This document shows positions 44,897-63,864 of a stretch of DNA of 64,000 nt, one piece after another (within the stretch, counting starts at the first letter, position 1; the number at the start of each line of letters is the position of its first letter). The position numbers were made by a program, and so were the translations under genes. Under the pieces are notes generated by a model. The model was not told where the DNA came from. It ran no database searches and saw nothing but the letters and a program-made list of their open reading frames with translations. This DNA comes from Chloroflexota bacterium (GTDB taxonomy: Bacteria; Chloroflexota; Limnocylindria; Limnocylindrales; CSP1-4). The DNA lies in assembly GCA_003152165.1 (NCBI GenBank), contig PLZO01000034.1:2264-66263 (forward strand). Direction: 5' to 3'.

Positions 44897-45673
44897 TTGA
44901 CCACGTTCGAGCAGGGCTTCGAAGACACGGAGCGCGCCGCTGATGCAGCCGCGAAAGCCGTGGGGAGCCTTCTTGCCGCGGCCAAGCAGCTCAAGAAGGC
45001 TGCCCACGAAGGGGACACCGGGGCGATCCGCAAGTCCTCGGAACGCCTGGGCCTCGCGATCGACGCGGTCCGCCAGGAAGTGGTGAACGCGCGTGGCACG
45101 TGGCCGTTCGGCGAGGACGCTGAGGACGAGTATTTGAGGAATGAATACGAGTCGGAGCTGATGGCGGCTGCGCGCGCGTCGGGGCTGCGCATGGATCAGC
45201 GCGATGGCCGCCTGCTCGCGTTCCCATCGATCGTGCGCGTTATCCCGGCCGATAGGTCTCTTCGGATCGACCGAAAACGGGTTCTGTCGATCCGGCCGTC
45301 TCGGATCATTGCGGCGCTGAAGGCCAATCAGACGAAGAAGCCGCGGTTCGCGCCGGATAGGTTCCTCGAGTCCCTGTTCCGCGCCTATCGCTTGATTGCT
45401 GGCCCAGACACTCAAGGCTCGACCCAAGCCTTGGCCGACGTCTACGAGGCCTTCACGCTACTGCCCGGTGCGACTGCCGAATATGGGCAGAGTGACTTTG
45501 CAAGGGATCTTTTCATCCTCGATCGAAGTGGTCTAACCAGAACAAAGTCGGGTGCCTCGTTCTCATTGCCCGCGAGCACGGGCACGAAAGGCGCGAAGGG
45601 AACCTTCACGTTCGTCGCCCCTGAAGGCGAATTGATCACCTACTTCGGCGTATGGTTCGGGCCGGCGTTGTGA
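44897..45673 (+). CDS. hypothetical protein, first gene of BrxD-like four-gene operon (gene A)
   Basis: TTG 44897 after caggaggga (ORF track extends to ATG 44813). Helical N-terminus, no known motif. Stop overlaps start of gene B (GTGA). Confidence 0.55.
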   Translation: MTTFEQGFEDTERAADAAAKAVGSLLAAAKQLKKAAHEGDTGAIRKSSERLGLAIDAVRQEVVNARGTWPFGEDAEDEYLRNEYESELMAAARASGLRMDQRDGRLLAFPSIVRVIPADRSLRIDRKRVLSIRPSRIIAALKANQTKKPRFAPDRFLESLFRAYRLIAGPDTQGSTQALADVYEAFTLLPGATAEYGQSDFARDLFILDRSGLTRTKSGASFSLPASTGTKGAKGTFTFVAPEGELITYFGVWFGPAL

Positions 45674-46647: not shown

Positions 46648-47963
46648 CCAGCAACCTGGCGAGTATCCCGGATCGACGCGCGATTGAAGCCTTAAGAAAC
46701 GGTGTTCCGAACCGAGATGCGGTTCGAGTTCTCGGCTGCAACCAGCCCGACGTGGAGGCGCGGTTCTCAGCCCAGCTCTCCGGAGTTCCGGCGGCGACCG
46801 ACGCCGATAGTCAGGTCCCCGGAATGCTTGTGGCCGGTGGCTTCGGCAGTGGCAAGTCCCACTTGCTCGAGTACCTCGAGCACCTCGGGCTGTCCGAAAA
46901 CTTTGTCGTCAGTCGAGTGGTCATCAGCAAGGAGACGCCGCTCTTCGACCCCGCCAAAGTATTCCGAGCAGCCGTTGAATCCGCTTCTGTCCCAGGTCAA
47001 ACTGGCATAGCGATCCCAGAGGTTGCCCTTCGACTGCGGCCGGATTCCCATTCATATGCCAGCCTGTACAAGTGGGCGAATCACCCGGATTCCAATATGG
47101 CGGCGATCTTTCCCGCGACCCTGATGCTCCATGAGCGTCTGAATAACGACCCAGAGCTGACCGAACTGATCCAGAATTTCTGGGCGGGTGATCCCCTTCC
47201 AATCGCGAAGCTGCGTGATGGGCTTCGACAGATTGGGGAGGCGGCGGCGTTTTCCCTCAAGGCCGTCAAAGCCAAGGAACTCACGGAGCAGAGGTTTCGG
47301 TTTGTCGCTCGCCTGATGCAGGGAGCCGGTTACCGGGGCTGGATCCTGCTGATTGACGAAGTGGAACTCGTCGGCCGGTACAGCCTTGTACAGCGCGGCA
47401 GGTCCTACGCGGAGCTGGCCCGCTGGATGGGCAAGATCGAAGGCCTACAAATCCCCGGGATCACCACGGTAGCGGCGATCACGGACGACTTTGCGTTGGC
47501 TGTCCTGAAAAGGAAGGGCGATGGCGACTACGTAGGGCCCAGGCTTCGCGACAAAGGTACCGATGAGTACCTCGCGTTGGCGCCGCGAGCCGAGGCCGGG
47601 ATGAGGATCATCGAGCGCGACGCAATAACGCTCCAACCCCCAACCGAAGAGATGCTTCTCGAGACGTACGAGCGACTGAAGGGCATTCATGCGCGCGCGT
47701 ACACGTGGGACCCACCTTCCATCGCAGCTGCTGACCTTGCAATGCGCCGAGCAATGCGTTCTCACGTCCGTCGTTGGATGAACGAATGGGACCTCAAGCG
47801 ACTCTACCCGGGCGCATCCGTTAGCACCGAGGAGCAGGAGTTGCGCCCGACCTACGAGGAGGACGTCGTGCTCGAAGAGCAGTCGCCCGACGACGAGGAG
47901 CGCGAGGTGAAGCCCGACGTAGGCTATGAGGCTCTGATCCGCGCCTTGGAGGAACAGCCCTGA
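46644..47963 (+). CDS. BrxD (DUF2791)-like P-loop ATPase, gene C
   Basis: 439 aa. N-terminal AIEALRNGVPNRDAVRVLGCNQ motif, Walker A VAGGFGSGKSHLL, Walker B GWILLIDEVELVG. Matches BREX BrxD family, but no pglZ/pglX/brxC in the window. Confidence 0.8.
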   Translation: MTSNLASIPDRRAIEALRNGVPNRDAVRVLGCNQPDVEARFSAQLSGVPAATDADSQVPGMLVAGGFGSGKSHLLEYLEHLGLSENFVVSRVVISKETPLFDPAKVFRAAVESASVPGQTGIAIPEVALRLRPDSHSYASLYKWANHPDSNMAAIFPATLMLHERLNNDPELTELIQNFWAGDPLPIAKLRDGLRQIGEAAAFSLKAVKAKELTEQRFRFVARLMQGAGYRGWILLIDEVELVGRYSLVQRGRSYAELARWMGKIEGLQIPGITTVAAITDDFALAVLKRKGDGDYVGPRLRDKGTDEYLALAPRAEAGMRIIERDAITLQPPTEEMLLETYERLKGIHARAYTWDPPSIAAADLAMRRAMRSHVRRWMNEWDLKRLYPGASVSTEEQELRPTYEEDVVLEEQSPDDEEREVKPDVGYEALIRALEEQP

Positions 47964-48502: not shown

Positions 48503-48822
48503 GCAGCTGGTGGCGCGACCGGAGGCCGCCCGAGCGCGCGAACTGGTGGAGTCGACGGCGGCGAGCGACGCCTGAGCCAGCTTTACATTGGGCGCTCCTG
48601 TCAACCACGCCTTTGCCGGCCTCGACGCAGCGCATCGAATTGGGGGGCACCACTCAGGCTGCCTGGCTGCTAACGAGGGATCGCGTAGCCGAAGTTACGG
48701 GTTCGACCGTCCGGATCGATGTCAGACCTCTAACGACAGGGCAGATTTCCGGCCGAACCTCCGGCGCCCAGCGAGACTCGGAAATGGCAACTGGGGCTCG
48801 TCCGGAGGCAAAGGAGTCTGAG

Positions 48823-50634
48823 ATGTCCCTCACGGATCGCCTCAGACTTGTGCTCGCTCCGCCTCTCGAGAGTTTCCTGCCCGGATCCGGGACTGCGCTC
48901 GAATGGCCCGCCGACCTCCTGCCTTTTCAACTCGAAGGCGTCAGAACCCTGATCGGCTCGGATCGACTGCTCCTCGCTGACGACATGGGCCTCGGGAAGA
49001 CCGTTCAGGCGATTGCGGCGATGAGGGTTCTGTGCCACCAAGGGGTCGTGACACACGCTTTTCTCGTCGTGCCTGCAAGCCTGCTGGACCAATGGCGACG
49101 AGAAATCGACAAATGGGCGCCAGAACTCCGAGCAATCATCGTCCGGGGAAGCCCAACCGAGCGCGCCTGGCAGTGGCGGGCCGAGGCGCACGTGACGCTC
49201 GTTGGTTACGAAACCCTCAGGGCCGATTACACAGAGAATCCTGACTCGCCCCCGCGTCGCCGCCTTTGGGATCTAGTCGTTCTAGACGAAGCGCAGAAGA
49301 TCAAGAATCGCGACGTCGAAGTCAGTCGGGAAACGAAGGGTCTACGAAGGCGGCGGTCCTGGGCGATGACCGGCACCCCGCTTGAGAACAGAATCGACGA
49401 TCTCGCCTCGATCCTCGAGTTTGTCGACCACATCGACGGTGAGCCGGTACCGCATTTCGTTCCAGGCCCCGAATTGCTCGCCCGGCACGCTGAACTTCAG
49501 CTACGGCGCCGCAAGGCGGACGTACTTACTCAACTACCTCCGAAGCAGGTGATCGATATCACTCTGCCCTTGTTGCCGCGACAACAGGAGACCTACGCGA
49601 GAGCTGAGCGAGATGGGATTGTTGAGTTGACCGCGAAGGGTGAAACGATTCAGATCCAGCACGTTCTTGCCCTGATCACTCGGCTCAAGCAAATCTGCAA
49701 TATCGACCCAACGTCGAACGAGTCCGCCAAGCTATCAGACGTCCGCGAGCGGCTGCGGGTGCTCGGCGAGGAAGGTCACCGAGCACTCTTGTTCTCCCAA
49801 TACACCGACGACACCTTCGGCGTAGCCGCAATCGCCCGCGAACTTGACGAGTTCCGCCCCCTGACGTTTACCGGGGGAATGAGTAGTGCCACCAGAGACC
49901 AGACCATCCGAGACTTCAAGGAGGATCCGCTTCGCAAGATCCTGATCCTGTCGCTCAAGGCAGGTGGCGTTGGCTTGAACCTGCAAGAAGCCTCGTATGT
50001 CTTTCACATCGATCGGTGGTGGAACCCGGCCGTTGAGCGACAGGCAGAGGATCGAACTCACCGAATGGGTCAATTGGTCCCCGTCACGGTATTCAAGTAC
50101 ACCTGCGAAGCCACAATTGAAGAGCGAATACAAACGATCCTCGCGACCAAGCAGCAGCTCTTCGATGAGATCATCGACGATGTGAGTCTCGACGTGGCTT
50201 CACGACTGACTTCGGATGAGTTGTTTGGGCTATTCGGACTCACGAGGCCGGGCAAGACGCCTGACCCGGACCCGACCAAGCGATCGTCCGGCGTGGAGTT
50301 CGAGGAGCGATGCGCACGGGTTCTTGAGGCTCGGGGTTGGAAGGTCACACGGACCCCGCGGAGCCGGGACGGGGGTGTCGATCTGATCGCGGACCACGTC
50401 GACGAGGTCGGACTCGCACAAAGGCTCTTCGTGCAGTGCAAGGATCACGCCCGCCCTGTCGGGGTCGAAGTGGTTCGAGAACTGATTGGGGTTCTACCCG
50501 CGGGCCAGCCAATTCATGCAATCCTCGCCGCTCGGAGCGGAGTCACAGCTGATGCTCAGGCGCTTGCCAATCGCCGAGGAGTGAAGGTTTGGGACGAGGA
50601 CGAGCTCGCGAACCTCGAACGTCAAGGCACTTAG
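48823..50634 (+). CDS. SNF2-family helicase fused to C-terminal Mrr-like (Mrr_cat) restriction endonuclease domain
   Basis: ATG 48823 after aaggag. SNF2 motifs LADDMGLGKTVQ, DEAQ (VVLDEAQKIKN), QAEDRTHRMGQ. C-terminal ...GWKVTRTPRSRDGGVDLIADHVDEVGLAQRLFVQCKDHARPVGVEVVREL = Mrr catalytic core. Confidence 0.85.
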   Translation: MSLTDRLRLVLAPPLESFLPGSGTALEWPADLLPFQLEGVRTLIGSDRLLLADDMGLGKTVQAIAAMRVLCHQGVVTHAFLVVPASLLDQWRREIDKWAPELRAIIVRGSPTERAWQWRAEAHVTLVGYETLRADYTENPDSPPRRRLWDLVVLDEAQKIKNRDVEVSRETKGLRRRRSWAMTGTPLENRIDDLASILEFVDHIDGEPVPHFVPGPELLARHAELQLRRRKADVLTQLPPKQVIDITLPLLPRQQETYARAERDGIVELTAKGETIQIQHVLALITRLKQICNIDPTSNESAKLSDVRERLRVLGEEGHRALLFSQYTDDTFGVAAIARELDEFRPLTFTGGMSSATRDQTIRDFKEDPLRKILILSLKAGGVGLNLQEASYVFHIDRWWNPAVERQAEDRTHRMGQLVPVTVFKYTCEATIEERIQTILATKQQLFDEIIDDVSLDVASRLTSDELFGLFGLTRPGKTPDPDPTKRSSGVEFEERCARVLEARGWKVTRTPRSRDGGVDLIADHVDEVGLAQRLFVQCKDHARPVGVEVVRELIGVLPAGQPIHAILAARSGVTADAQALANRRGVKVWDEDELANLERQGT

Positions 50635-50685: not shown

Positions 50686-51942
50686 GTGACCAGTGACTTC
50701 TCCTGGCTCGACTACTCGGCGCGGGACCAGAGGCTCATGCTGGAGCTGATCGATCAGATCCGCGAGCCGGGCACCCTCGACGAGCTCGGCCTCGGCACCA
50801 TCCGCGACGGGTTCGCCGACTACCTATTCCCTGGCGTCAGCACACTGCAGACGCGGGCCCGGTATCTACTCTTCATCCCCTGGATTTTCCGGCAGCTGGA
50901 GGATGACCGACAGGTCTCCAGCGCCGTCATCGGCCGCCTATCTCGGGACCGGCAGGCGGACCTCGTGGACGCGCTCGAGAACGGGAACGAGTCCGAGGGC
51001 GTCATCGGGATCTCCGCCCGACGAAGACTTCGGCGACCGCCTGCTGACATCTACTGGGGCGCGCTCGGTCAGTACGGGATCAGGCGCTATCCCGGGTCAC
51101 TTGGCGCGTACTTCGCGTGGATCGATCGGTGGCGCGAGGGACACGTCCGTTTCAGGCAGACTCGCCGCGGCGACGGCGGCGAGCTGGTCGACGTCTCCGA
51201 GCCGAACTGGCACGCCCTGCCAAACCGACCTTCTGACCTGCTCACCGAAGCCACCTTCGCGCTGTCGTCCGAAGAGGCGCGGTTCCTCGGGGAGAGGATC
51301 CTCCTGTCCTGCCCGGGATCGCTGCTAGCGTATTGTCTGCGAAACAGGGACGTAACCCTCCAGGCCATCGAGCGCCCCGCCGACATTCCCGGGCTCGACG
51401 GGGAATTGGCGTCCGTGGCCCGCGAATCTGGCAACTTCGCTCGCGTGCTTCGGGGCGCAATGCTCCTTTACAACCTCATGCTTGCAGAGCAGCGTCACGA
51501 GGACGCCGATCCGAACGCCGCATCCCGCGCCCAGGATGCGGACCGGATCGAACGATTCCGGGCGAGGTTGGGTGAGTGGGCTGCCCTTGAGATCTCACCG
51601 CGACTCGGGGAGCTTCGGACGTGGCTTTCCAGCGGCACTTTCCGCGCCATGGTCCCGATGATTGCCTCCAGATCCGGGCAGGCGGCCGACTTCGCGAACG
51701 ACTGGATCAGCATCGCGTTGGTCGATCCGAGCGTCCTCGCAGACAACCCTGCTGCCCGTGCCGCCGTGAGCCACCGCGAGCGAAGGGTCAAACGCCTGCG
51801 TTCGCGCTTCGCCAACGCCACTGCCCTCGCGAACTGGAGCGGGGGCTCCGGGACAGGCGAAATGACCTACCGCTGGACCAACGCTCGGTTGCTTCTGACG
51901 GACATTGCTGCGGGGATTGCCCAGGAGCGCGTGGGTGGCTGA
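50686..51942 (+). CDS. hypothetical protein (418 aa), no recognised domain
   Basis: GTG 50686. Conserved-looking N-terminus SWLDYSARDQRLMLELIDQIREPGTLDELGLGTIRDGFADYLFPGVSTLQTRARYLLFIPWIF. Stop overlaps start of PLD gene by 8 nt. Confidence 0.6.
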   Translation: MTSDFSWLDYSARDQRLMLELIDQIREPGTLDELGLGTIRDGFADYLFPGVSTLQTRARYLLFIPWIFRQLEDDRQVSSAVIGRLSRDRQADLVDALENGNESEGVIGISARRRLRRPPADIYWGALGQYGIRRYPGSLGAYFAWIDRWREGHVRFRQTRRGDGGELVDVSEPNWHALPNRPSDLLTEATFALSSEEARFLGERILLSCPGSLLAYCLRNRDVTLQAIERPADIPGLDGELASVARESGNFARVLRGAMLLYNLMLAEQRHEDADPNAASRAQDADRIERFRARLGEWAALEISPRLGELRTWLSSGTFRAMVPMIASRSGQAADFANDWISIALVDPSVLADNPAARAAVSHRERRVKRLRSRFANATALANWSGGSGTGEMTYRWTNARLLLTDIAAGIAQERVGG

Positions 51943-53851
51943 GGGCACTCTCACGGGTGCGGAGCGCGATTCCTCTCCCGTGCTCCAGCCTCGCCACCGG
52001 GGGCTCCTATTCGAGGCGTTGCGGCCGCCCGCCGGATATCAGCTCGAACGAGCCGTCGGGACGACGTTCACGCTCGACCTCCTCGCGCTGCTCGTGCCAC
52101 CGGTGGCATTCGCCAACTTCGATACCGAGGGCGTCGACGGCACGCCGCTGGCGAATCCTGTCGCCATCTTTGAGGCCGCCCGTCGCAACGCTCCTTTGAT
52201 CACGGTGTTCTGCCAAGCGGGCGAGATCCGTGTCCCCGCCTTCCGACCCGAGTTCGCCTTCCTTGAGCAGGCGGTAGTCGCGGTCAGGCCGCCTCGACCC
52301 GGCGGCATCTTCCACCCGAAGGTCTGGGTGGTCCGCTACGGACCAACGGCCGAGCTCCGTGCCGCCTCGAGTGCTGGGCTGCGCTACCGGTTCCTTTGCC
52401 TATCGCGGAACCTGACCTTCGATCACTCGTGGGACACGCTTCTTCGGCTTGATGGCGTTGCAGCATCCAAGCCCAGATACGTGAACCGGTCGCTCTCCGC
52501 ATTCGTGCGGGCACTCCCTGGGCTCGCCGTCCAACCGATCGGAGACCGAGGTCGGGCAGTGGGTGAGCTCGCCGGTGACCTCGAGACCGTGGATTGGGAC
52601 CGGCTGCCAGATCCGCTGCGGCTCTCGTCGTTCTGGCCCATGGGGCTCGACGGGCGTGCGCCAGCACCTTTTGGCAGCCATCCCGACGGTCGGATGCTGG
52701 TGGTGTCTCCATTTGCGACCGGAAGAGCACTCGACGCTCTCCTCCGAGGTCGCCCCGATTCCGTGCTCGTCACGCGCGCGTCGACCTTGCGTGCCCTGGG
52801 CCGCGAGGGTGTGGCACCTGCCGAGCGGACGTGCGTGCTCCAGCCGGGTCTCGCGATGGCCGCCGACGATGACGAGGCAGGGGCGGGGCCACAGACGGTC
52901 GAGGCATCCGACCTCCAGGATCTCCACGCCAAGCTGTACGCGATTGACACGCCTGAAGGCGCCCGGGTGTGGACCGGCTCAGCCAATGCGACTGATGCCG
53001 GGTTCGGGGGCAACGTCGAGTTCCTTGTCGAGATGCGCTCGGCGGACTCGCGGCACACGGTCGCGGCCATGCTCGAGCCCGGTCCTCCCGACGAGCCGAG
53101 TTTTGGCAGCATGCTCGAGGACTGGGCGGTCCAGGGTCAGCCTGAGGAGGAGACGGAGGCCGACAAGGCCGATCGGACGCTCGGGGCGATCGCAAGGGTA
53201 CTGGGCGGGCTGGACTGGCAGGCACGGGTACGCCGGACAGGTGACGACAAGTTCACCGTGGCGGTGAGGGCGAGCGGGGCCGGCCTGCCCATCAAGCTGC
53301 CCGGCCTGACGGCCTCCCTCAACATGATGGCGTCCGACGGCCGACCGGGCGAAGCTATCAACCTCCGCGCCCGGACGGTCCGCTCGTCGTTCAACTGCAC
53401 GTTCCAGCACCTAAGCGCGTTCTTCGCGGTCCGCCTCCACTTGGCGACCGGCACAGCGGAGAGGACCCGATCGATCCTGATCGTCACGGAGTTTGTCGGG
53501 GCGCCCGCTGACCGTCTCGCCCGCCTCCAGGCGGCGGGCCTCCGGGGCGACGGCTTCTACCGCCTCATGCTCCTCCTCCTTGGGGCTGCGGACCCAACCG
53601 GTGGAGACGCCGTCGAGCTGAACAATGGGGGCGGGTGGTTCGGATCACCCACCTCCTCACCCGGCGGCCAGGAGACGCTGCTGGAGCCGTTGCTTCAGAT
53701 GCTGGCAAGGGCGCCCGAGCGTCTCGATGAGCTTGAGAAGGTGCTTGCTGGTCTGCGTCGGACGCCCGAGGGCAGGAACATACTGCCGCCCGGCTGGACC
53801 GACCTTTGGGATGCCGTGACCACGGCCAGGCGGGGGAGACGCCGCCCGTGA
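51935..53851 (+). CDS. phospholipase D-family nuclease with two HKD motifs (648 aa)
   Basis: HKD-1 GIFHPKVWVVRY, HKD-2 LHAKLYAIDTPEGARVWTGSANATDAGF. Long non-PLD N- and C-terminal regions. Stop overlaps helicase start (GTGA). Confidence 0.8.
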   Translation: MAEGTLTGAERDSSPVLQPRHRGLLFEALRPPAGYQLERAVGTTFTLDLLALLVPPVAFANFDTEGVDGTPLANPVAIFEAARRNAPLITVFCQAGEIRVPAFRPEFAFLEQAVVAVRPPRPGGIFHPKVWVVRYGPTAELRAASSAGLRYRFLCLSRNLTFDHSWDTLLRLDGVAASKPRYVNRSLSAFVRALPGLAVQPIGDRGRAVGELAGDLETVDWDRLPDPLRLSSFWPMGLDGRAPAPFGSHPDGRMLVVSPFATGRALDALLRGRPDSVLVTRASTLRALGREGVAPAERTCVLQPGLAMAADDDEAGAGPQTVEASDLQDLHAKLYAIDTPEGARVWTGSANATDAGFGGNVEFLVEMRSADSRHTVAAMLEPGPPDEPSFGSMLEDWAVQGQPEEETEADKADRTLGAIARVLGGLDWQARVRRTGDDKFTVAVRASGAGLPIKLPGLTASLNMMASDGRPGEAINLRARTVRSSFNCTFQHLSAFFAVRLHLATGTAERTRSILIVTEFVGAPADRLARLQAAGLRGDGFYRLMLLLLGAADPTGGDAVELNNGGGWFGSPTSSPGGQETLLEPLLQMLARAPERLDELEKVLAGLRRTPEGRNILPPGWTDLWDAVTTARRGRRRP

Positions 53852-56800
53852 CGTACGAACCGATCGCACCCCGGTCCCTCGCGGCGCTCAAGCCCTTCCA
53901 GCGGGAGACGGTGCGCTACGTGTTCGAACGCCTGCACGGCGACGACGAGCCGGTCGACCGGTTCCTCGTCGCCGACGAGGTTGGGCTGGGCAAGACGCTC
54001 GTCGCGCGCGGTGTCATCGCGCGAACGATCGACCGCATTCGCGAAGGCGGCGAGCGCCGGATCGACATTGTCTACATCAGCTCGAACGCCGACATCGCGG
54101 CCCAGAACCTGCAGAAGCTCCATCCCGACGGCCACACCGCCCGTGACTTCGCGATGCGAGTCACGTTGCTGCCCGCGCGAACTGGGTCGCTCGATAGCAG
54201 TGACCTCAACTTCGTCTCCTTCACTCCTGGGACGAGCTTCAGCCTCGGCGACCAGTTTGGGCGCCGGGACGAGCGGCTCGTCTTGTACCGGATGCTGCGC
54301 TCCGCCTGGGGCGGTGACGCCATGGACGCACCAGGCGTGGCTCGGATCCTGCGAGGTGACGCTGGTCTTGACGCGTTCCTGCGAGACGCCGCGTGGTTCC
54401 GCGAGCACCCGGCTGGGCTGGACGCCACGATGGTGTCGGCATTCGCCGCGGAGCTGGCGCGACGGGAGGTCGAGGACCTGATGCCCGGGGGACGGCCGAT
54501 CCGGAGGGAGTTTGCCGAGCTCGCGGCGACCCTCACCTCGGATGACGACGACCAACGGCATCGAGCCGAGCGGGCCCACCTCGTCGGCGGGCTCCGGGCG
54601 ATCCTCGCCAGGACATGCATCACGGCAATGCAGCCAGCGCTGATCATCCTCGACGAGTTCCAGCGCTACCGTTCCGTACTTGTGTTGCCTGAGCAGCCGA
54701 CCGAGGATCAGCGGCTTGCGCATGCGCTCTTCCTCGAGCTGGGCGCGAACTCGAAGACCCTTCTCCTTTCGGCGACCCCATATCGGATGTACACGCTGTC
54801 AGATGAGACCGACTCCGACGACCACTACGGCGACTTCATCAAGACGATGGAGTATCTGCTTGGGGGCGAAGGAGCCCGAGCCCTGGGTGACAACCTCCGG
54901 GCCTATCGAGATGCGCTCCTGGCCATCGACCGCCTAGACCCCGACGAGCTAGCGACGGTGCGGGACGCGGTCGTTGCGAGGCTGCGGCGCGTGATGTGTC
55001 GGACCGAGCGTCTCGCCGTGGAAGACAAGCGCGGGGGAATGCTCGACGCTGGCGAGCCCCGGACGTCCGCAGTCACTCCGGCCGACCTGCGCGCGTTCGT
55101 GGCCCTGGACACTGTCAGCCGCGACCTCAAGGCTGCGGGCGACGCCGTCGAATACTGGAAGTCGACGCCGTATGCCCTGTCCTTCATGGAGTCCTACGAC
55201 GTGCGGGCGCGACTGAACGCCCGCCGCTCGAGCCTCTCCCCGGCAGTCGAGAACGTGCTGCGCCTGGGCGACGGCATCCTCCGCACCCGCAACATCAGGG
55301 GCTACCGCCCGGTCGACGAAGGGAACCCTCGTCTTCGCGCCCTGGCGTCAGAGCTCCTTCGTACCGACACGACACAGCCGATCTGGATCCCGCCGTCCCT
55401 GGCCTACTACGGCCTGGAGGGGCACTTTGCGCCTGCGGCGGCCATTGGGTTCACCAAGCGCCTTGTCTTCTCCGCCTGGACCGCGGTCCCACAAGCCATC
55501 GCGTCCCTGCTGTCGTATCGCGTGGAGCGCGGGATGCTCCACCAGCATTTCGAGACCAACCAGCTCGTCGAGGGCGAGCACAAGCCGAGGACGCTGCTCA
55601 CCTTCAGGAGCCTGGACGAGCGCGCTGCTTCGATGACCTCGTTCCTCCTGCTCTACCCGAGCCTGGCCCTCGCCCGGTTGGGTGACCCGCTCCTGCTCGG
55701 CGCCGCAGGCACGCGATCGGCGTCCGAGGTTCGGGACCTGGCGGCGTCCGCGATCGCCGCCGCGCTCGACGAGATTCTGCCGCCCGAGGACGAGAGCGAC
55801 GATCGGACGAACCCCGCTTGGTACTGGGTCGCCCCGCTGCTCCTCGATCGTGCACTCGTCCCCGACACGGTCAGGGGCTTCTTCGGGCCGAACCATCGCG
55901 AAACGGCCGGCTCCTGGGCGACCCTGAAGCCGGGCGCTGAGGAGCGCGATGACGCCGGTAATCTCGCGCTCCACGTGGCCGCCGCAGCGGACGTGCTCGG
56001 TGGAAACCTCCCGAATGGCCGGCGTCCGCGAGACCTCGCGAGCGTCCTCGCCCGCCTTGCCGTCGGTGGGCCTGCAGTCTGCGCCCTGCGGGCACTCTGG
56101 CGGCCTCTCTCGGAGGCTGATCGCGCGGACCCCAGGACTCTACGTGCCGCCGCCCGGGTCGCTTGGGGGTTCAGGAGCCTCTACCGGCAGCCCGAGGTCG
56201 CCGCGATGATCCGCGGTTCCACGCCCGAGGATGCCTATTGGCGTAGCGTCACGGACTACAACATCGGGGGCTGCCTGCAGGCCGTGCTCGACGAGTACGC
56301 CCACGTTCTGCCCGACGTTATGGGCCACCTCCCAGGCGACAGCACGCTCCTCGACGTGGCCGACGCGATAGCTGCCGCGATGTACCGGGCGCTGACTTTG
56401 CGCACTGCCCGCTACGGCTTCACGGACCTCACGACCAAGACCTGGCATAAGGAGCGACGGCGACCCACGATCGGAGCCCGGTTCGCACTTCGGTTTGGAG
56501 TGGACGCAACCGACGAAGCCAACGAGATCCAGCGCTCGACGAACGTGCGGGAGGCCTTCAATTCGCCGTTCTGGCCGTTCGTCCTCGCCACGACGTCGAT
56601 CGGCCAGGAAGGCCTTGACTTCCACGTCTACTGCCACCGGGTGGTGCATTGGAACCTGCCGGCCAACCCAGTCGATCTGGAGCAGCGGGAAGGAAGGGTT
56701 CATCGCTACAAGGGCCACGCTCTTCGCCGCAACATCGCGGACCGCTACGCCGCGGCCGCATTCGACGGCGGGGCCGACCCGTGGGGTCAGTTGTTCCGTG

Positions 56801-57141
56801 CCGCGGCGGACACGGACGAGGCAAGGGCGAGCAACGGCTTGATCCCGTTCTGGATCTCCACAGGCCCGTTCAAGATCGAGCGTGACATCCCGGTCCTGCC
56901 TTTCAGTCGCGAGATTGAGCGCTATGAGCGCTTGCGAAGGTCACGAGCCGTCTACCGGCAGGTGATCGGGCAGGTCGCGCAGGAGGATCTCGTGGACTAC
57001 CTGCTTCGTCTGGGATCGGCTCGCGAGGTGCGGATGTCCCAGGCGGACCTCGCCGTTCGGCTCGAGGCGCTGCGGATCGACCTAGCGCCGCCGCCTCCGT
57101 CCGCACCCGACGGAGCGGTGGGCGACCCAATCGTCGAGTGA
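53848..57141 (+). CDS. large SNF2-like SF2 helicase (1111 aa)
   Basis: Motif I VADEVGLGKTLVA, motif II LIILDEFQRYRS, helicase-C/motif VI SIGQEGLDFH...QREGRVHRYKG. About 600-aa insertion between motifs II and VI. Confidence 0.8.
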   Translation: MTYEPIAPRSLAALKPFQRETVRYVFERLHGDDEPVDRFLVADEVGLGKTLVARGVIARTIDRIREGGERRIDIVYISSNADIAAQNLQKLHPDGHTARDFAMRVTLLPARTGSLDSSDLNFVSFTPGTSFSLGDQFGRRDERLVLYRMLRSAWGGDAMDAPGVARILRGDAGLDAFLRDAAWFREHPAGLDATMVSAFAAELARREVEDLMPGGRPIRREFAELAATLTSDDDDQRHRAERAHLVGGLRAILARTCITAMQPALIILDEFQRYRSVLVLPEQPTEDQRLAHALFLELGANSKTLLLSATPYRMYTLSDETDSDDHYGDFIKTMEYLLGGEGARALGDNLRAYRDALLAIDRLDPDELATVRDAVVARLRRVMCRTERLAVEDKRGGMLDAGEPRTSAVTPADLRAFVALDTVSRDLKAAGDAVEYWKSTPYALSFMESYDVRARLNARRSSLSPAVENVLRLGDGILRTRNIRGYRPVDEGNPRLRALASELLRTDTTQPIWIPPSLAYYGLEGHFAPAAAIGFTKRLVFSAWTAVPQAIASLLSYRVERGMLHQHFETNQLVEGEHKPRTLLTFRSLDERAASMTSFLLLYPSLALARLGDPLLLGAAGTRSASEVRDLAASAIAAALDEILPPEDESDDRTNPAWYWVAPLLLDRALVPDTVRGFFGPNHRETAGSWATLKPGAEERDDAGNLALHVAAAADVLGGNLPNGRRPRDLASVLARLAVGGPAVCALRALWRPLSEADRADPRTLRAAARVAWGFRSLYRQPEVAAMIRGSTPEDAYWRSVTDYNIGGCLQAVLDEYAHVLPDVMGHLPGDSTLLDVADAIAAAMYRALTLRTARYGFTDLTTKTWHKERRRPTIGARFALRFGVDATDEANEIQRSTNVREAFNSPFWPFVLATTSIGQEGLDFHVYCHRVVHWNLPANPVDLEQREGRVHRYKGHALRRNIADRYAAAAFDGGADPWGQLFRAAADTDEARASNGLIPFWISTGPFKIERDIPVLPFSREIERYERLRRSRAVYRQVIGQVAQEDLVDYLLRLGSAREVRMSQADLAVRLEALRIDLAPPPPSAPDGAVGDPIVE

Positions 57142-57281
57142 CAAGGCCACGACCCGCAGCCAATTGCCGACACAAGAGACGCCTCGTGGGAGTGCGCTTC
57201 GTCGACGGGTGTCCGGCCACTCATTCGGAAAGAGCTCGCATTACTCCGTGCTCGTTCGATGGTTTCTCGCGCCACGCCCAC

Positions 57282-57509
57282 CTACGCTGCCTCGTCGAGC
57301 ACCGGACTCTCCGGGCTCGGCGACCTTGCGGAGCGGACCAGCGGAGGATCGCGGACGTAGAGGCAGAGCGGGGCCGCAGGAGTGGCACCACAAGTCCCTT
57401 GGTTCGACTCGACGGGGCCTCGCTCGAGCGAGATTCCAGCGAGCTCGGTGGCGGTCATCTCGAGACCCGTCTTCTTGAGGAAGGCAATCGCCGGCCTCAT
57501 CAATGACAT
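57282..57509 (-). CDS. small ORF, possible HTH-like protein (uncertain, maybe frameshifted)
   Basis: MSLMRPAIAFLKKTGLEMTATELAGISLERG... in the 594-bp gap between the helicase gene and the GIY-YIG gene. Low-complexity C-terminus. Confidence 0.2.
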   Translation of the reverse strand: MSLMRPAIAFLKKTGLEMTATELAGISLERGPVESNQGTCGATPAAPLCLYVRDPPLVRSARSPSPESPVLDEAA

Positions 57510-57734
57510 TCTCTGCCTCGGAAGCCTGTATTGGCCTGGCGCGGGGAAGAACAGGCGTTATGGTTGCCCTTCACCCGGAAATGGCCTGGTGGCACACGAG
57601 ATGGATGTCGGCGCGCCTGAAGGCCTGCTCCACGGGTACACGCGGAGCAGGTAGCCGTTCGCCTTCGACGTTGTCGTGGTGGACTCGACCAAGTCCTACA
57701 TGTCGTTGTGCTTGCCGCCGGTCTTAGAGGTCTG

Positions 57735-59816
57735 ATGAACAAAGAAGTCGAATTATTTCTACATCCAGCCCAGGTCCTGCGTCGTACCGAGGCTCTCGCG
57801 TCTCCGAGCCCAGTACCGACGGTCGGCGGTGTTTACGGCTGGTGGTTTCGAACCCTTCCAGCCCCGCTGGACACCGCTGCCTGCGCCACTCAGGATGGCC
57901 TGACCCTACTGTACGTGGGGATCAGCCCGACTATCCCGCCGGCGACGGGTCGGCCGGCCAGCCAGCAGACACTGCGAGCCAGGATCCGGACCCACTACAC
58001 CGGCAATGCTGAGGCTTCGACCCTCCGAAAGACATTGGGCTGCCTGCTGGCCGATGAGCTCGGCATCGAGCTCAGGCGTGTTGGCTCCGGCACTCGGATG
58101 ACCTTCCTGGCCGGCGAGGCCAACTTGTCAGCCTGGATGGCCGAGAACGCCCTCGTGAGCTGGGTCACGCACCCGAGTCCCTGGGAGTTCGAGGACGAGT
58201 TGATCGCAACCTTGGATCTCCCGCTCAACCTCCTTGGTAACTCTAGGCACGCCTTCCACCCAGAGCTATCCCAAATTCGGTCGGCCGCCGTCGGCCGAGC
58301 CAAGGCTCTGCCTGTGATCCCCAATCCGGGCGTAGGGGGTCACTTTGTGGAGGAGCCATCAGGGACTAGCAATCGCTTCGGGGCACGGATTGTCGCTGAC
58401 GGGGCAGGAGAAGATTGCGCTGCCCTCGGACGTCTGGTGCTAACGGGTGTGGCAGCTAGAGCAGATCGTGCCTCGATCGACGATTCGCGGCTCATGCTCG
58501 CCGCAGCTCTCCGAGCACTACGCCAGGACGAGCGGCGCATCGACATCCTCGTGACTCCTGCGGGCTTTGTCGAACGGAGCCTGGACGGGGCGTGGTCCGG
58601 CGAACAGGGCTGGGACTCGAGCCAGGCTGACTTCGATCGCCTTGCAACCAGTGCCGCGTCGGTCGCGACCGAGCTGATGACTCCTGACTTGTGCGAGTTG
58701 GCCCTCGAAGTGGTTGACCACATTGTGCTGGGGATCGACGTCTGGCCGACTGACGATCCCGAACTTCATGGTGAGGTCGCTTGCCTCTATGACGTCCAGA
58801 CGGGCGCCGTTCGCCCCGTCACAGGGAAGTCGTACCCAACCACGGGTCAGCAACGCGACCTCATTCGGAATCCCGGCGCGCAATCCCATGTCATTGAGGT
58901 TGGCGACGAGCGCCTGGCAATCTTGGTTTGCTTCGATCTGGCCGCCTGGAGCCCGCGAGCTAATGCCAACGCAAAAGGCATCCGGGCGGGCACCTGGCAG
59001 GCGATGCAGGAGGCCGTCTCTAAGTCCCGGCCCACCCTGGCCGTCCAGCTGCCGCACACGGTGAGTAACTCCCGAACGTGGACTGCCGCTTGGGCTGCGT
59101 TCGAACGAAATGCGGGACCGGAGTTCCGAGCAGGTACGACTGCAATTCGTCACCTCGACCAGCAGTACAAGCCCGTTCCTGGTCCATTCGATCCGACACT
59201 ATTGGAAGGATCGGGTACCGGTGAGCGCGTGGTGGATATTGTCGTCGGCGGCAGGATCGAAATGATGACCCCAGCTGGCTCGTCGAGTCGAGGGCGCCAG
59301 CCAGTCAAGCGGTCGTCGACTGCGTCACGAGCTCGCACGCCGGGCAGGAACCCTGAGCGTGGAGTCGGGCTCGCGCGCACCGCACTCGAAGTCTTCCAAG
59401 CACGAATCGGCGCGTATCCGGATGGGATCCGGATTAAGGAGCTCGCGGACGAGCTGGGTCGGGCGGACAAGCCAATCTTCGGCGCCCGCCCACTCGTGAC
59501 GCTGCAAAGTGCCCTCAATGCTTCGCAGGCGCACGGCGTCTGGCACCGCAAGGCGGGGGCACTCTGGGTTGCCGGCAGCGGAAACTCCAGGATGGAGAGT
59601 GGTCTGTCCGGGCGAGCCCTGGCGGAAGCCCTCTACGGTTTCGTGGTGGTGCACTATCCCGATCATATCTTCCACTACGGGAAGACCCTAGATGAACTCG
59701 AGCGTTCAGGGATAAAGGTCAGAGGGACGGGCAACACGATGCGAGCGGCCCTAGCTGGAGCGCCGAAACGCTTCGAGCACATCCCAGGTCGTAGCGGCAA
59801 CTGGCGCTGGAAGTAA
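57735..59816 (+). CDS. three-domain protein: GIY-YIG-like nuclease domain + carbon-nitrogen hydrolase-like domain + C-terminal HARE-HTH-like domain
   Basis: N-term GVYGWWF...LLYVGIS...LRARIRTHY...STLRKTLGCLL (GIY-YIG/T5orf172-like). Middle IDILVTPAGFV / TGKSYPT / RLAILVCFDLAAW resembles CN-hydrolase E-K-C triad positions with Glu replaced by Ala. C-term GIRIKELADELGRADKPIFGARPLVTLQSAL (HARE-HTH-like). Confidence 0.6.
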   Translation: MNKEVELFLHPAQVLRRTEALASPSPVPTVGGVYGWWFRTLPAPLDTAACATQDGLTLLYVGISPTIPPATGRPASQQTLRARIRTHYTGNAEASTLRKTLGCLLADELGIELRRVGSGTRMTFLAGEANLSAWMAENALVSWVTHPSPWEFEDELIATLDLPLNLLGNSRHAFHPELSQIRSAAVGRAKALPVIPNPGVGGHFVEEPSGTSNRFGARIVADGAGEDCAALGRLVLTGVAARADRASIDDSRLMLAAALRALRQDERRIDILVTPAGFVERSLDGAWSGEQGWDSSQADFDRLATSAASVATELMTPDLCELALEVVDHIVLGIDVWPTDDPELHGEVACLYDVQTGAVRPVTGKSYPTTGQQRDLIRNPGAQSHVIEVGDERLAILVCFDLAAWSPRANANAKGIRAGTWQAMQEAVSKSRPTLAVQLPHTVSNSRTWTAAWAAFERNAGPEFRAGTTAIRHLDQQYKPVPGPFDPTLLEGSGTGERVVDIVVGGRIEMMTPAGSSSRGRQPVKRSSTASRARTPGRNPERGVGLARTALEVFQARIGAYPDGIRIKELADELGRADKPIFGARPLVTLQSALNASQAHGVWHRKAGALWVAGSGNSRMESGLSGRALAEALYGFVVVHYPDHIFHYGKTLDELERSGIKVRGTGNTMRAALAGAPKRFEHIPGRSGNWRWK

Positions 59817-59834: not shown

Positions 59835-62800
59835 TTGCGCACTGTTGACGGCGAGGTTCTCTTCAGCCCGACCGACCTGGTCGGGTTTCTCGCCTGCGGC
59901 CACCTCACGCAGCTTGATCGAGCAAGCTTTGCCGGACTGATCGAGAAGTCCAAGAAGGTCGATGAGGAGCTGCAACTCCTCATCGATAAGGGCCGCGAGC
60001 ACGAGACGAGGTACTTGGGGCTGCTTGCGGCCGAAGGGCTCGGCGTTACCGATATCGACGACGGCGACCACTCGGCCGCCGGTCTCCTCGCGGCTCGCGA
60101 GCGGACCATCGAGGCGATGCATCGCGGGGACGATGTGATCTACCAGGCCACATTCATCGAGGGTGGCTGGTCAGGCCAGGCGGACTTTCTCCGTCGCATC
60201 GATCAGCCAGGGGCCCCTAGCCGTCTCGGGGCATGGATCTATGAGCCCGAGGACACCAAGCTCGCGCTATCGGCGAAAGCGGGAGCTCTCGTCCAGCTTC
60301 TGACCTACGCGAGGATGGTTGAGGCCGTCCAAGGAATTGCGCCCGAGCGTGTGCACGTTGTGCTCGGTCGGGCGGAGGTCACGAAGGCATCATTCCGAGT
60401 TGCTGACTACGGTGCTTATCACCGGCTCGTCACACGCAGGTTCGAGGACCTTGTCCTCCGCGGCGAGCCTCCTACCGCCGAACTCCTTCATGTGGTTCCT
60501 GATCCGGTCGAGCACTGTGGCGTTTGCTCTTGGGCTCAGCACTGCCGTGATTTGCGCTATCGAGCAGGCCACCTGTCGAGGGTCTCGTTCATCCGACGCG
60601 ACCAGATCGAGGATCTCCGTGCGGCCGGGATCCCCACGATATGGGTGCTGGGCGGGCTTGGCGATCCTCTTCCTCGGGTCAAAGGCATCGCCGTTGACGT
60701 CCTGGCCCGACTCCAGGACCAGGCGGGTATGCAGCTCGAAGAAGCCCGGACTCGCGTCCGGTTCCACAAGATCCTCGAACACCCCGAACCGCCGCCAGAA
60801 CGCGGCCTTCTCAGCCTCCCTGAGCCATCGCCACTCGACGTCTTCTTTGATTTTGAGGGCGACCGGTTCGCACTCGACGATGGCTTGGAGTACCTCTTTG
60901 GTTGGGTCGAAGCCCCCGGCCCTGGCACTGAGCCGGCGGACGCTGCCTTCAGCACGCTCTGGGCACACGACCGAGTGCAAGAGAAGCAGGCGCTCGAAGC
61001 CTTCGTCGACTACGTGTCCGAACGCCGAGTGCGCGACCCCGGAATGCATGTCTACCACTACGCGCCATATGAGCCGACCACCCTCCACCGGCTGACGCAG
61101 CTCCACGGGACGCGCCAGGAGGAGCTCGACGTTCTGCTCCGTGCTGGCGTGTTCGTCGACCTCTACCGAGTCGTGCGTCAGGGGGTCCGCGTTTCGTCCG
61201 AGTCGTATTCGATCAAACGTCTCGAGCCGCTCTACGCACTCACCCGTGACGCGGACGGGATCGCCAAGGCACTCTCGAGCATGATCGCTTACGAGCGCTG
61301 GCTGCGTGATCGAGACCAGGCGATCCTCGACGACATCGCCGACTACAACCGGGACGACTGCGTGTCGACCCTGATGCTGCGCGACTGGCTCGAGGAGCGC
61401 CGTATCGAGTTGATCCAACGGCTCGGCCGAGACCCAGGCCGGCCGGTCCCGGGCTCTAGTGAGCCGTCAGATGCGCTACGAGCGACCGATGACGAGACTG
61501 CCAGCGTACGCGCCGCGCTCACCGCCGACATTCCGCCGGAAACGCTGGACACAGACGCACTCGATCCCGAACGTCAGGCGCGACGCCTTCTTGCGAACCT
61601 GCTGGGTTGGCACCGGCGTGAAGCGCGGGCGGACTGGTTCGAATGGTTCCGCCTTCGCGACCTGGGCGCCGACGATCTCGTCCGTGACAGCACCGCGCTC
61701 GGCGTCAATGGCTTCGAGGGCCAGGTCGGGCTGGAGGCGAAGTCGAAGCTCTTCCGTTGGCTCTTCGATCCAGAGCAGGAAACGAAGCTTCGCGAAGGCG
61801 CAGAGGTCGTTGCCGCTCCCGGACTTGACCCGACCAACATGAGCACGATCGGCGTAGTCCGTCGCCTTGATCTTGACCTGGGTGTGATTGAGATCAAGAT
61901 CGGGCCGAAAAAGGAGCGCCTGGACCTGGACCAGATCACCGGATTCCTCCCCGATACGCCGTTCCGATCAGGCCCACAGTCCGATTCGGTCTTGGGGCTC
62001 GGCAAATGGGTCGTTGAAAACGCGATCGCCGCCGATGGGCCGAGTCGGGCGGTTCGCGACGTCCTACTCGATCGGCCACCGCGGATTTCTGGGATCACTC
62101 CCGGGGCGCCACTAGTCCCGGACGGTCACGCTCCCAACCTCGCGGCTCGCGAACTTGCGCTGGCTCTTGACCATTCGTATCTGGCGATTCAAGGTCCGCC
62201 GGGCTCGGGAAAGACGTATGTCGGGGCAGCTATCGTCCTCGACCTCGTGCGTCCGCGCCCGGGCCACCAGAGGCGGGTCGTGGGCATTACGGCGTTCAGC
62301 CACGCAGCGATTGGCAACCTGCTGGCGGAGATCGTCCGCCAATCGAAAGGGCAATCGCCCGTCCGGATTCTCCAGAAGGCCGGCGAGAACGAGTGGTGTC
62401 GACTCGACGCGGTCGAGTGTACGAACGACAACCAAGTAGTGGAAGCCCGCTTGGCCGCGGGGGATGTCGACATCGTCGCTGGGACCTCCTGGCTTTGGAG
62501 TCGGCCCGAGCTGGTCGAAGCGGTCGATACGCTCGTCGTCGACGAGGCGGGGCAGGTGTCGCTCGCGAACCTGGTTGCGTCCGGCCGGGCAGCCCGCAAC
62601 CTCGTCCTTCTTGGGGATCCCCAGCAGCTGTCACAGCCGGTCAAGGGAGCCCATCCTCCCGGCGCCGAGAAGAGCGCTCTCGAGCATGTCGTAGGGAATC
62701 ACGAGGCGATTCCGGCGGATCGCGGGGTGTTCCTCGCGACCACTCGCCGCCTTCACCCGTCGATTTGCTCGTTCACGTCAGAGCTCTTCTATGACGGACG

Positions 62801-63365
62801 GCTGAGGTCGATGGACGGTCTCGAGCTGCAGTCAATTCTTTCGGACGACCCAATCCTCGGTGGTGACGGGTTGCGGTGGGTCCCCGTGGAGCACGTCGGG
62901 CGGACGAACTTCTCGTCTGAGGAGGTCGACGTTGTTGCGTCGCTCGTCAGCGAGTTGCTTACCAAGAAGTGGCGCGACCGCGACAAGAATGTCCAGCCTA
63001 TTCAGCCGAAGGACATCCTCGTTGTCTCGCCGTACAACGCTCAAGTGGTGCTGCTGCACAAGGCGCTGCCGGCCCATGTCCGCGTCGGCACTGTCGACAA
63101 GTTCCAGGGCAAGGAAGCGCCGGTCGTCATTTATTCGATGGCGACGTCGACTCCGGACGACATGCCTCGCGACATGTCGTTTCTCTTTAGCCGGAACCGC
63201 TTCAACGTGGCCACATCGCGCGCCCAGGCCCACGTCATCCTTGTTTGCAACCCGGCGCTCCTCACCGTCCCCTGCAAAACCCCGGAGCAGATGCGTTTGG
63301 CGAACGTCCTTGCGCGTTTCGTCGAGCTGGCGGGCGAATCGGCTACACGAACCGATCCCACCTAA
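59835..63365 (+). CDS. TM0106-family RecB-like nuclease + RNase H-like domain + C-terminal Upf1/DNA2-like SF1 helicase (1176 aa)
   Basis: N-terminal Cas4/RecB-like PD-(D/E)xK with CxxC...C cluster, central ...VYHYAPYEPTTL... exonuclease-like fold, C-terminal AAA_11/AAA_12: QGPPGSGKTYV, DEAGQ, GDPQQL, VDKFQGKEAPVVIYS, RFNVATSRAQ. Confidence 0.85.
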   Translation: MRTVDGEVLFSPTDLVGFLACGHLTQLDRASFAGLIEKSKKVDEELQLLIDKGREHETRYLGLLAAEGLGVTDIDDGDHSAAGLLAARERTIEAMHRGDDVIYQATFIEGGWSGQADFLRRIDQPGAPSRLGAWIYEPEDTKLALSAKAGALVQLLTYARMVEAVQGIAPERVHVVLGRAEVTKASFRVADYGAYHRLVTRRFEDLVLRGEPPTAELLHVVPDPVEHCGVCSWAQHCRDLRYRAGHLSRVSFIRRDQIEDLRAAGIPTIWVLGGLGDPLPRVKGIAVDVLARLQDQAGMQLEEARTRVRFHKILEHPEPPPERGLLSLPEPSPLDVFFDFEGDRFALDDGLEYLFGWVEAPGPGTEPADAAFSTLWAHDRVQEKQALEAFVDYVSERRVRDPGMHVYHYAPYEPTTLHRLTQLHGTRQEELDVLLRAGVFVDLYRVVRQGVRVSSESYSIKRLEPLYALTRDADGIAKALSSMIAYERWLRDRDQAILDDIADYNRDDCVSTLMLRDWLEERRIELIQRLGRDPGRPVPGSSEPSDALRATDDETASVRAALTADIPPETLDTDALDPERQARRLLANLLGWHRREARADWFEWFRLRDLGADDLVRDSTALGVNGFEGQVGLEAKSKLFRWLFDPEQETKLREGAEVVAAPGLDPTNMSTIGVVRRLDLDLGVIEIKIGPKKERLDLDQITGFLPDTPFRSGPQSDSVLGLGKWVVENAIAADGPSRAVRDVLLDRPPRISGITPGAPLVPDGHAPNLAARELALALDHSYLAIQGPPGSGKTYVGAAIVLDLVRPRPGHQRRVVGITAFSHAAIGNLLAEIVRQSKGQSPVRILQKAGENEWCRLDAVECTNDNQVVEARLAAGDVDIVAGTSWLWSRPELVEAVDTLVVDEAGQVSLANLVASGRAARNLVLLGDPQQLSQPVKGAHPPGAEKSALEHVVGNHEAIPADRGVFLATTRRLHPSICSFTSELFYDGRLRSMDGLELQSILSDDPILGGDGLRWVPVEHVGRTNFSSEEVDVVASLVSELLTKKWRDRDKNVQPIQPKDILVVSPYNAQVVLLHKALPAHVRVGTVDKFQGKEAPVVIYSMATSTPDDMPRDMSFLFSRNRFNVATSRAQAHVILVCNPALLTVPCKTPEQMRLANVLARFVELAGESATRTDPT

Positions 63366-63426: not shown

Positions 63427-63864
63427 ATGGCCAGATACCCAGAACGCCCCCTTCCGTGGGTCTCGAAGCCCTATGGTCCTGACGAGGACGCTTGGGACGA
63501 GGCCAAGGACCAAGCCCGTCGTACCATCTATCGTTGGGCCGCCGAAGGCCGTTACGGCACATACACCGATCTCGTCCGCGAGGTCACCGCCATCGAGTGG
63601 CTGGATGGTGCATTTACCCACCACGGCACACAAATAGGAGTGCTCCTGGGACAGGTGTCGATGGAGGAGCTGGACCGAATCGAGGATCGTCCGCTGCTAT
63701 CTGCTCTCGTGGTTGGCAAGGAGGAGAGCATGCCAACAAGCGGCTTCTGGGGGATGCTCCAGGAGCTCGGTATCGAGGATCCGGCCACCGAAATGGGTAG
63801 GCTCGAATTCTGGTCGAATGAGGTTAAGTTGGCGTTGGGCTACTACGGCTCCCGCCTCCCGTGA
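63427..63864 (+). CDS. hypothetical protein
   Basis: 145-aa ORF co-oriented 62 nt after the RecB/SF1 gene. No recognised motif. Confidence 0.45.
   Translation: MARYPERPLPWVSKPYGPDEDAWDEAKDQARRTIYRWAAEGRYGTYTDLVREVTAIEWLDGAFTHHGTQIGVLLGQVSMEELDRIEDRPLLSALVVGKEESMPTSGFWGMLQELGIEDPATEMGRLEFWSNEVKLALGYYGSRLP

Follow-up and report, generated by a model that had tools for sequence, protein, structure and literature searches.

We identify, in a 64,000-nucleotide (nt) stretch of a Chloroflexota genome (contig PLZO01000034.1, positions 2,264 to 66,263 of the forward strand; this whole stretch is called the window below), a gene at 57735-59816 on the forward strand whose 693-amino-acid (aa) product is a putative multidomain nuclease, encoded in a defence island, with a previously undescribed branch of the nitrilase superfamily at its core. 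The protein carries a GIY-YIG domain at its N-terminus, a nitrilase-like domain in the middle and two winged helices at its C-terminus, and it points to an unstudied enzyme activity tied to DNA restriction. The gene and its parts are as follows.

57735..59816, forward strand: complete coding sequence (CDS), 693 aa plus stop, with the layout GIY-YIG_2 / nitrilase-like domain / tandem winged helix, drawn from the open reading frame (ORF) list, the homologue alignment and the AlphaFold2 model
57828..58283, forward strand: GIY_YIG_2 nuclease domain, residues 32-183 (Pfam PF20815, E=2.9e-31)
58371..59267, forward strand: domain with the nitrilase-superfamily fold, of an unnamed family, residues about 213-511
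58554..58568, forward strand: TPAGF, at the place of the catalytic Glu of the nitrilase "PE", residues 274-278; family consensus TP[GA]GF
58827..58829, forward strand: Lys365 in TGKSYP, candidate catalytic lysine; K in 72 of 73 members, directly after strand E359-364
58929..58937, forward strand: Cys399-Phe400-Asp401 (TGC TTC GAT), candidate nucleophile elbow; family motif C-H-D
59268..59354, forward strand: disordered linker rich in Arg, Ser and Pro, residues 512-540, poorly conserved, with a predicted local distance difference test score (pLDDT) below 50
59355..59813, forward strand: two tandem winged-helix domains, residues about 541-615 and 622-693

The gene is more than a chance ORF, as its homologues, its Pfam score and a confident AlphaFold model all show. 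The longest ORF at this position is 57708..59816 on the forward strand (GTG start, 702 aa), within which the ATG at 57735 gives the 693-aa product, and because close homologues begin at the position equivalent to 57735 in our alignment, 57735-59816 is the likely CDS. There are 16 homologues at 49-67% identity, and the AlphaFold model built from 16 homologues has a pLDDT of 80, with three folded blocks (residues 1-198, 213-511 and 541-693) joined by disordered linkers. A first-pass annotation of this DNA, made from the sequence, had quoted five motifs from the protein, all of which are present in the translation (GVYGWWF at 32-38, LLYVGIS at 58-64, TPAGF at 274-278, GKSYP at 364-368 and ILVCFDL at 396-402).

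A Pfam scan of the 693-aa protein returned GIY_YIG_2 as its sole match, which scores 108.9 bits against a cut-off of 22.4 and covers profile positions 1-152 of 153; this and the full set of motifs bear out the GIY-YIG domain that had been proposed at the N-terminus. The motif residues are Y34 (GVY), Y60 (YVG), R83, H87, N91, E128, E153 and N165, and the last six of these are invariant in an alignment with 10 diverged GIY_YIG_2 proteins that bear methyltransferase, HAD or other partner domains. We take the catalytic roles of these residues by analogy with the spacing in I-TevI, and the pattern of residues is as expected of an active GIY-YIG nuclease.

The middle domain, when modelled alone (AlphaFold), gives a pLDDT of 87 and a predicted template modelling score of 0.88, and it shows the four-layer alpha-beta-beta-alpha sandwich of the nitrilase / CN-hydrolase superfamily. 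None of 50 diverse family members matches Pfam CN_hydrolase (PF00795), even at E<=10, and Pfam, NCBIfam, PADLOC and PDB profile searches with the middle domain gave no match to a nitrilase or to anything else. The earlier description of this region as nitrilase-like therefore holds by fold, though no sequence-profile search detects the kinship.

The active-site residues were placed by aligning the family profile with E. coli YafV in hhalign, which returned a probability of 9-14%, with or without YafV homologues; a database search seeded with YafV gave only homologues at >=75% identity, and the nitrilase profile was not deepened. Here the family GCHDL pairs with VCYDL of YafV (probability 13.5%, E=0.0021), a weak but consistent match, and at low stringency TPAGF, which sits at the end of strand E268-273 in the model, pairs with LPEMF of YafV. 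The residue that replaces the Glu is Gly in 53 and Ala in 20 of 73 diverse family members, the window protein having Ala. In the elbow, the same members have Cys in 72, His in 66 and Asp in all 73. The first-pass annotation had held that the catalytic Lys and Cys are retained and the Glu is lost: on these weak alignments the Cys is kept and the Glu of PE is replaced, and Lys365 is plausible in a register that is ambiguous between K365 and Q372, the Lys of YafV falling opposite Q372-Q373.

Residue 400, next to the candidate nucleophile, is Phe only in this copy (TTC, 58932-58934), with His at this position in 15 of 15 close homologues and in 66 of the 73 diverse members. A single sequencing error is unlikely here because TTC is two base changes from a His codon. 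Canonical nitrilases have W, Y or F right after the nucleophile Cys, and by analogy with them Phe400 need not inactivate the domain.

Using the middle-domain profile in an exhaustive hidden Markov model (HMM) search of 1.84 billion representatives, we find that this domain defines a family of at least 456 clusters at 50% identity at E<1e-3 (373 at E<1e-10), from both bacteria and archaea. Its members are mostly free-standing proteins of 280-320 aa, some of which have a zinc-ribbon extension of ~80 aa or an N-terminal extension of ~300 aa. A two-motif DNA pattern scan of GTDB species genomes gave at least 120 loci, from which the 119 listed loci were used for the partner counts below; all 120 of 120 listed loci are true members (E 1e-30 to 1e-112), and they span Polyangia, Pseudomonadales, Alphaproteobacteria, Bacteroidota, Chloroflexota, Planctomycetota, Acidobacteriota, Methanocella, Aenigmatarchaeota, Bathyarchaeia and others. 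Viral contigs contain a single member among 2.9 million, and a phage origin of the family was rejected on this count in favour of a cellular one.

Across the 73 diverse members, and in the numbering of the window protein, the conserved positions are R233, TP[GA]GF 274-278, G292-W293, D335, E347, TGKSYP 363-368, Q372, H385, C399-H400-D401, R408, H441, W449, W453 and D501, with R233, D335, K365, P368, H385, C399 and D401 invariant in 50 diverse members. K365, C399, D401, D335, H385 and H441 stand at or near 97-100% across bacteria and archaea, where mean identity is ~26%. It had been suggested that the domain is either inactive or repurposed, and the second of these fits better, the loss of Glu being family-wide and the Lys, Cys and Asp, together with additional His, Asp and Glu residues, being nearly invariant. 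The active site reads as repurposed, not decayed, because the Glu-less motif is ancestral and lies beside these nearly invariant polar residues.

In the model, the C-terminus forms two helix-helix-helix-hairpin units, each a winged helix-turn-helix fold, which in structure comparison come closest to generic winged helices (Zalpha, H1/H5, ESCRT-II and Fur); a PDB profile search with the C-terminus gave only a chance match to TraC. The winged helix that had been proposed for this end of the protein is thus present, in two copies, and its assignment to the HARE-HTH kind (PF05066) is not supported, since 10 C-terminal sequences have no Pfam match at E<=10 and hhalign against the N-terminal domain of B. 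subtilis RpoE delta (sequence checked against PDB 6zfb) gives 0.4%. The tandem winged helix also occurs as a free-standing protein of ~156 aa, at 46-58% identity; each of the three modules of the window protein can thus stand apart from the others, and each recurs in defence-type settings. One free tandem winged helix of this length (P0297, at 8001-8471 of locus L140) is 51% identical to the C-terminus of the window protein and has a UvrD helicase gene on one side, SNF2-NOV_C, GmrSD_N and DUF1156 genes on the other side and an adjoining phage-type integrase. Two relatives (P0015 and P0016) have a Cys-rich C-terminus (..GVICGKCNRAM) in place of the winged helices.

Many members of the nitrilase-like family are coupled to other modules of the kind found in restriction systems. 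A DUF7255-like domain is present at 50 of the 119 listed loci, as an N-terminal fusion in 34 and as an adjacent gene in 16, and hhalign weakly pairs its core, cDF..IvEFDExQH...YRDEQRAWYD, with lDF..vvElDGgQH, the DUF559 catalytic motif in E. coli YcjD (probability 13.7%). A PDB search with DUF7255 gave no match and hhalign against Vsr was not significant; from the motif we consider DUF7255 a probable Vsr/DUF559-like endonuclease. Examples of these partner loci, among the genome loci L010-L129, are L013, L018, L034, L040, L054 and L089. An N-terminal "head" domain of ~85 aa can precede DUF7255, and in 18 loci it directly precedes the nitrilase-like domain; this head matches residues 6-93 of ScoMcrA (5zmm_A) at E=5.6e-5, has a weak PADLOC mREase_IV match and has no Pfam match. 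Our head-domain HMM matches 57 of the listed loci, and 72 of the 119 have DUF7255, the head or both, i.e., coupling to a nuclease is frequent, not obligatory. In one protein, P0020, GIY_YIG_2 is joined to a stretch that resembles the ScoMcrA head domain.

The closest non-fused relative is P0023, which is encoded on the metagenome contig L008 (19-1958) in a split layout, where a free nitrilase-like gene (312 aa) and the beginning of a GIY_YIG_2 gene (334 aa) overlap. The tie between this family and GIY_YIG_2 is independent of their fusion.

The region of the window that contains the gene is a defence island. PADLOC identifies an Azaca system upstream (ZacA 50686-51942, E=2e-109; ZacB 51905-53851, 4e-142; ZacC 53806-57141, 0), and farther upstream lie a Type I restriction-modification operon, hsdM/hsdS/hsdR, at 32303-37879 and GmrSD at 40466-43438 on the minus strand. 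The gene had been placed between a large helicase and a RecB/superfamily 1 (SF1) gene, which is correct, the first of these being ZacC (1111 aa) at a distance of 593 nt, against the 594 given earlier. Azaca and the gene thus share island and strand, and membership of the gene in Azaca was rejected, as its product matches no Zac model in PADLOC and no Zac-type genes occur at the eight other loci described below. On the other side, starting 18 nt past the stop codon of our gene, is a facultative partner.

59835..63365, forward strand: TM0106 RecB-like nuclease, RNase_H_2 and SF1 helicase, 1176 aa (TIGR03491, E=7.8e-70; AAA_11, AAA_12, RNase_H_2)

The full fusion is rare, with about 15 full-length homologues among 5.8 billion proteins at 55-67% identity, one of which is from a Chloroflexota metagenome-assembled genome. 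We inspected nine independent fusion loci, the window included, and found defence-type neighbourhoods at every one of them. Their neighbours are the following.

Window: Azaca and the helicase
L003: orthologous helicase
L001: SNF2/RapA_C helicase, methylase and RelA_SpoT
L002: MazE-PIN
L005: NACHT and NERD-UvrD
L006: DUF499/DUF1156/SNF2-NOV_C
L132: HEPN-MNT and N6/N4 methylase
L134: NERD/UvrD_C
L135: an uncharacterised 294-aa gene and a gene of the uracil-DNA glycosylase (UDG) superfamily

The helicases of the window and L003 are 74% identical, and both abut the fusion gene on the same strand, in L003 with a 1-nt overlap and in the opposite gene order. Co-occurrence with the RecB/SF1 gene, which the first-pass annotation had asked to be checked, is therefore found in two of the nine loci and not in the other seven, where the helicase is absent. 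These observations suggest that the gene and the RecB-like/SF1 helicase form a facultative functional pairing, and since no partner is universal across the nine loci, the gene is probably autonomous. In L135 (2511-4141), the 294-aa gene begins 27 nt past the homologue P0005 and is followed by the overlapping UDG-family gene; the genes may form an operon that ties P0005 to DNA base chemistry.

The first-pass annotation did not recognise this architecture, and our searches found no record of it in PADLOC, NCBIfam or the searchable literature; in the literature searched, DUF7255 and GIY_YIG_2 are not mentioned, and no defence protein combines GIY-YIG with a nitrilase. The window protein does share separate features with described systems. 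Like the restriction endonucleases Eco29kI, Hpy188I and Cfr42I, it would direct GIY-YIG catalysis against foreign DNA, and it may share their oligomerisation for double-strand cleavage: the monomers of Hpy188I and Cfr42I have a single active site each, and double-strand cuts require dimers or tetramers. Those three are small type II enzymes paired with a methyltransferase, whereas the window gene has no evident cognate methylase, belongs to a different Pfam family (GIY_YIG_2) and has two extra modules. With ScoMcrA-type Type IV systems the likeness lies in other members of the nitrilase-like family, which carry a ScoMcrA-like head plus an endonuclease-type domain, whereas the window protein has GIY-YIG and winged helices, with no head, SBD, SRA or HNH domain in Pfam, PADLOC or the model (the head-HMM output was not separately inspected for a match in the window). 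Identity to canonical amidases (Nesterenkonia 3hkx and E. coli YafV) is only 10-16%, and, in contrast to these, the family has Gly or Ala for the Glu of PE, the additional invariant residues D335, E347, H385 and H441, and a fusion to DNA-directed modules in place of a setting in metabolic operons.

A further parallel is with DRT1 and UG5, in which a nitrilase-superfamily domain likewise lies beside a nucleic-acid-handling domain in an anti-phage protein (PMC13275509; PMC13436386); in DRT1 the nitrilase domain acts as the defence effector, on a substrate that is not known (PMC13275509). By description, from these papers and the annotation of the proteins, the nitrilase domain of DRT1/UG5 is of the canonical CN_hydrolase type, keeps the usual catalytic residues and is attached to a reverse transcriptase. 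In contrast, the window protein has no reverse transcriptase (Pfam, PADLOC), no CN_hydrolase match at E<=10 and no first Glu, and its partner is a GIY-YIG nuclease. Nitrilase-fold domains are new to the anti-phage field through DRT1 and UG5, and we find here a second branch that cannot be recognised by sequence. Where DRT1 and UG5 have a reverse transcriptase, this branch is coupled to modules of the DNA endonuclease and Type IV restriction kinds, which argues that its substrate is DNA or something attached to it.

Our preferred reading, which we advance tentatively as a good possibility somewhat short of probable, is that the gene product is a self-contained, restriction-like, DNA-targeting defence enzyme. 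Modified foreign DNA is the most attractive target, because the family is tied to Type IV-type modules. The winged helices would bind DNA, the GIY-YIG domain would nick or cleave it, and the nitrilase-like domain would work as a Cys/Lys enzyme, either acting on the nucleic-acid substrate or being gated by it. Most plausibly it would hydrolyse a C-N-linked group, of amide or nitrile type, on modified foreign DNA, or carry out another thiol-dependent step; as nitrilase-fold proteins do elsewhere, it may also provide a dimer or tetramer platform that pairs two single-site GIY-YIG domains for double-strand cleavage. In some genomes, including that of the window, the enzyme presumably works with the adjacent RecB-like nuclease/SF1 helicase.

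A more specific form of this proposal, improbable at present in our estimate, is that the whole family consists of DNA-directed Cys/Lys "C-N hydrolases" lacking the canonical Glu, which recognise or strip amide- or nitrile-type hypermodifications of phage DNA, or act covalently on DNA, and so license the attached endonuclease. The targets could include derivatives of 7-deazaguanine or amide-linked adducts of thymidine or adenine, and the licensed endonuclease would be GIY-YIG here and DUF7255 elsewhere. If true, this would be a modification-erasing or modification-dependent restriction mechanism without earlier description.

Several of our results weigh against the reading as a restriction-like enzyme. 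The canonical general-base Glu is missing, so that nitrilase-type chemistry is not assured; the mapping of the catalytic residues depends on weak profile alignments and strand position; and the window copy has Phe400 in place of a near-invariant His beside the Cys. In the wider family, the endonuclease label of DUF7255 rests on a weak hhalign match (probability 13.7%), and 47 of the 119 listed loci (about 40%; 14 of them truncated) have no nuclease or head module. Furthermore, the protein matches no PADLOC or NCBIfam model, i.e., no defence library recognises it, its location in a defence island is circumstantial, and no cognate methyltransferase or self-protection gene is evident.

That 47 of the 119 loci lack nuclease modules and 18 have only the head domain, with the nitrilase-like domain as the constant part, would suit another explanation, an abortive-infection enzyme, in which this domain is a toxic effector that degrades an essential small molecule, as has been proposed for DRT1, and the GIY-YIG domain and winged helices serve as sensor or anchor for phage DNA; the strongly conserved Cys/Lys core and the nitrilase effector of DRT1 point the same way. 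The canonical Glu is missing here as well, however, the conservation of the full GIY-YIG motif set speaks for an active nuclease rather than a sensor only, and the recurrent partners of the family are DNA-restriction modules, not signalling or sensor domains, so that we consider this explanation rather unlikely. The nitrilase-like domain could instead be a pseudoenzyme, a non-catalytic scaffold that oligomerises the GIY-YIG nuclease and perhaps binds a ligand or a DNA modification. A scaffold would accommodate the loss of the general-base Glu throughout the family, the dimers or tetramers on which GIY-YIG restriction enzymes depend for double-strand cuts, the lack of a His beside the Cys in the window copy, and the fact that nitrilase-fold proteins are obligate oligomers (PMC13275509). 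Conservation of K365, C399, D401, D335, H385 and H441 at ~97-100% is difficult to account for unless these residues have a part in catalysis or in precise binding of a ligand, and free-standing members of about 300 aa exist with no nuclease; a pure scaffold is accordingly given a low probability.

The remaining alternatives concern the gene as a whole. It might be one half of an obligate two-gene system, with its GIY-YIG/nitrilase-like product as the effector of the adjacent helicase, which would unwind foreign DNA or translocate along it. The shared strand and tight spacing (an 18-nt gap in the window, a 1-nt overlap in L003) could be read in this way, as could the adjacency to helicases 74% identical, which is kept despite the swapped order. 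We judge this unlikely, since the helicase is absent at the other seven independent loci, whose neighbours are unrelated, and helicases are common in defence islands anyway. Least credible, and in our view very improbable, is that the gene has no defence role and encodes a DNA-repair or processing enzyme, or a selfish GIY-YIG endonuclease of the homing type that lies by chance in a variable genomic island. GIY-YIG domains do occur in the repair enzymes UvrC and Slx1 and in homing endonucleases, a UDG-family gene is present in one homologue operon, and there is no defence library match; against this, the distribution is patchy and rare, varied defence-type neighbours occur at every locus examined, the other partners of the family are Type IV restriction-type modules, and no intron, intein or repeat context was noted in a general reading of the loci.

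Encoded by a single gene, with a helicase as optional partner, the window protein offers a compact system for studying the role of a Cys/Lys nitrilase fold without the Glu beside a nuclease. Naming the family would label hundreds of "hypothetical" genes and would give a functional lead for DUF7255.

The gene is separated from ZacC by a gap.

57142..57734, no strand: upstream gap, presumed to hold the gene's own promoter region, 593 nt, with nothing recognisable

It had been suggested that the gap may hold a promoter and a divergent small ORF, for which we find no backing: the gap has no consensus promoter or terminator and no Rfam match, and its small ORFs have no Pfam match. The homologue genes are likewise preceded by gaps of 300-600 nt. 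The window gap also shows marginal tblastx similarity (E about 1e-3) to the NERD/UvrD-type genes that flank homologues in L134 and L005, and could be a decayed gene remnant.

Elsewhere in the window, the gene immediately before ZacA, and on its strand, encodes an SNF2 helicase with a C-terminal Mrr_cat nuclease domain (48613-50634; ZorD/DpdE-like in PADLOC); together with ZacABC it may make up an Azaca variant of four genes. Two overlapping ORFs of 331 and 439 aa at 45652-47963 both match BrxC_BrxD, with no other BREX genes seen, and may stem from the splitting or duplication of a BREX-type ATPase. Immediately upstream of the Type I restriction-modification genes is a 759-aa ORF (29981-32260) with no Pfam match, and past the helicase gene is a 145-aa ORF (63427-63864), also with no Pfam match. 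A single ORF at 22018-23547 joins, in one reading frame, an N-terminal Transposase_20 part of the IS110 type to Creatinase_N and Peptidase_M24, and may be an insertion remnant or have a mis-called start.

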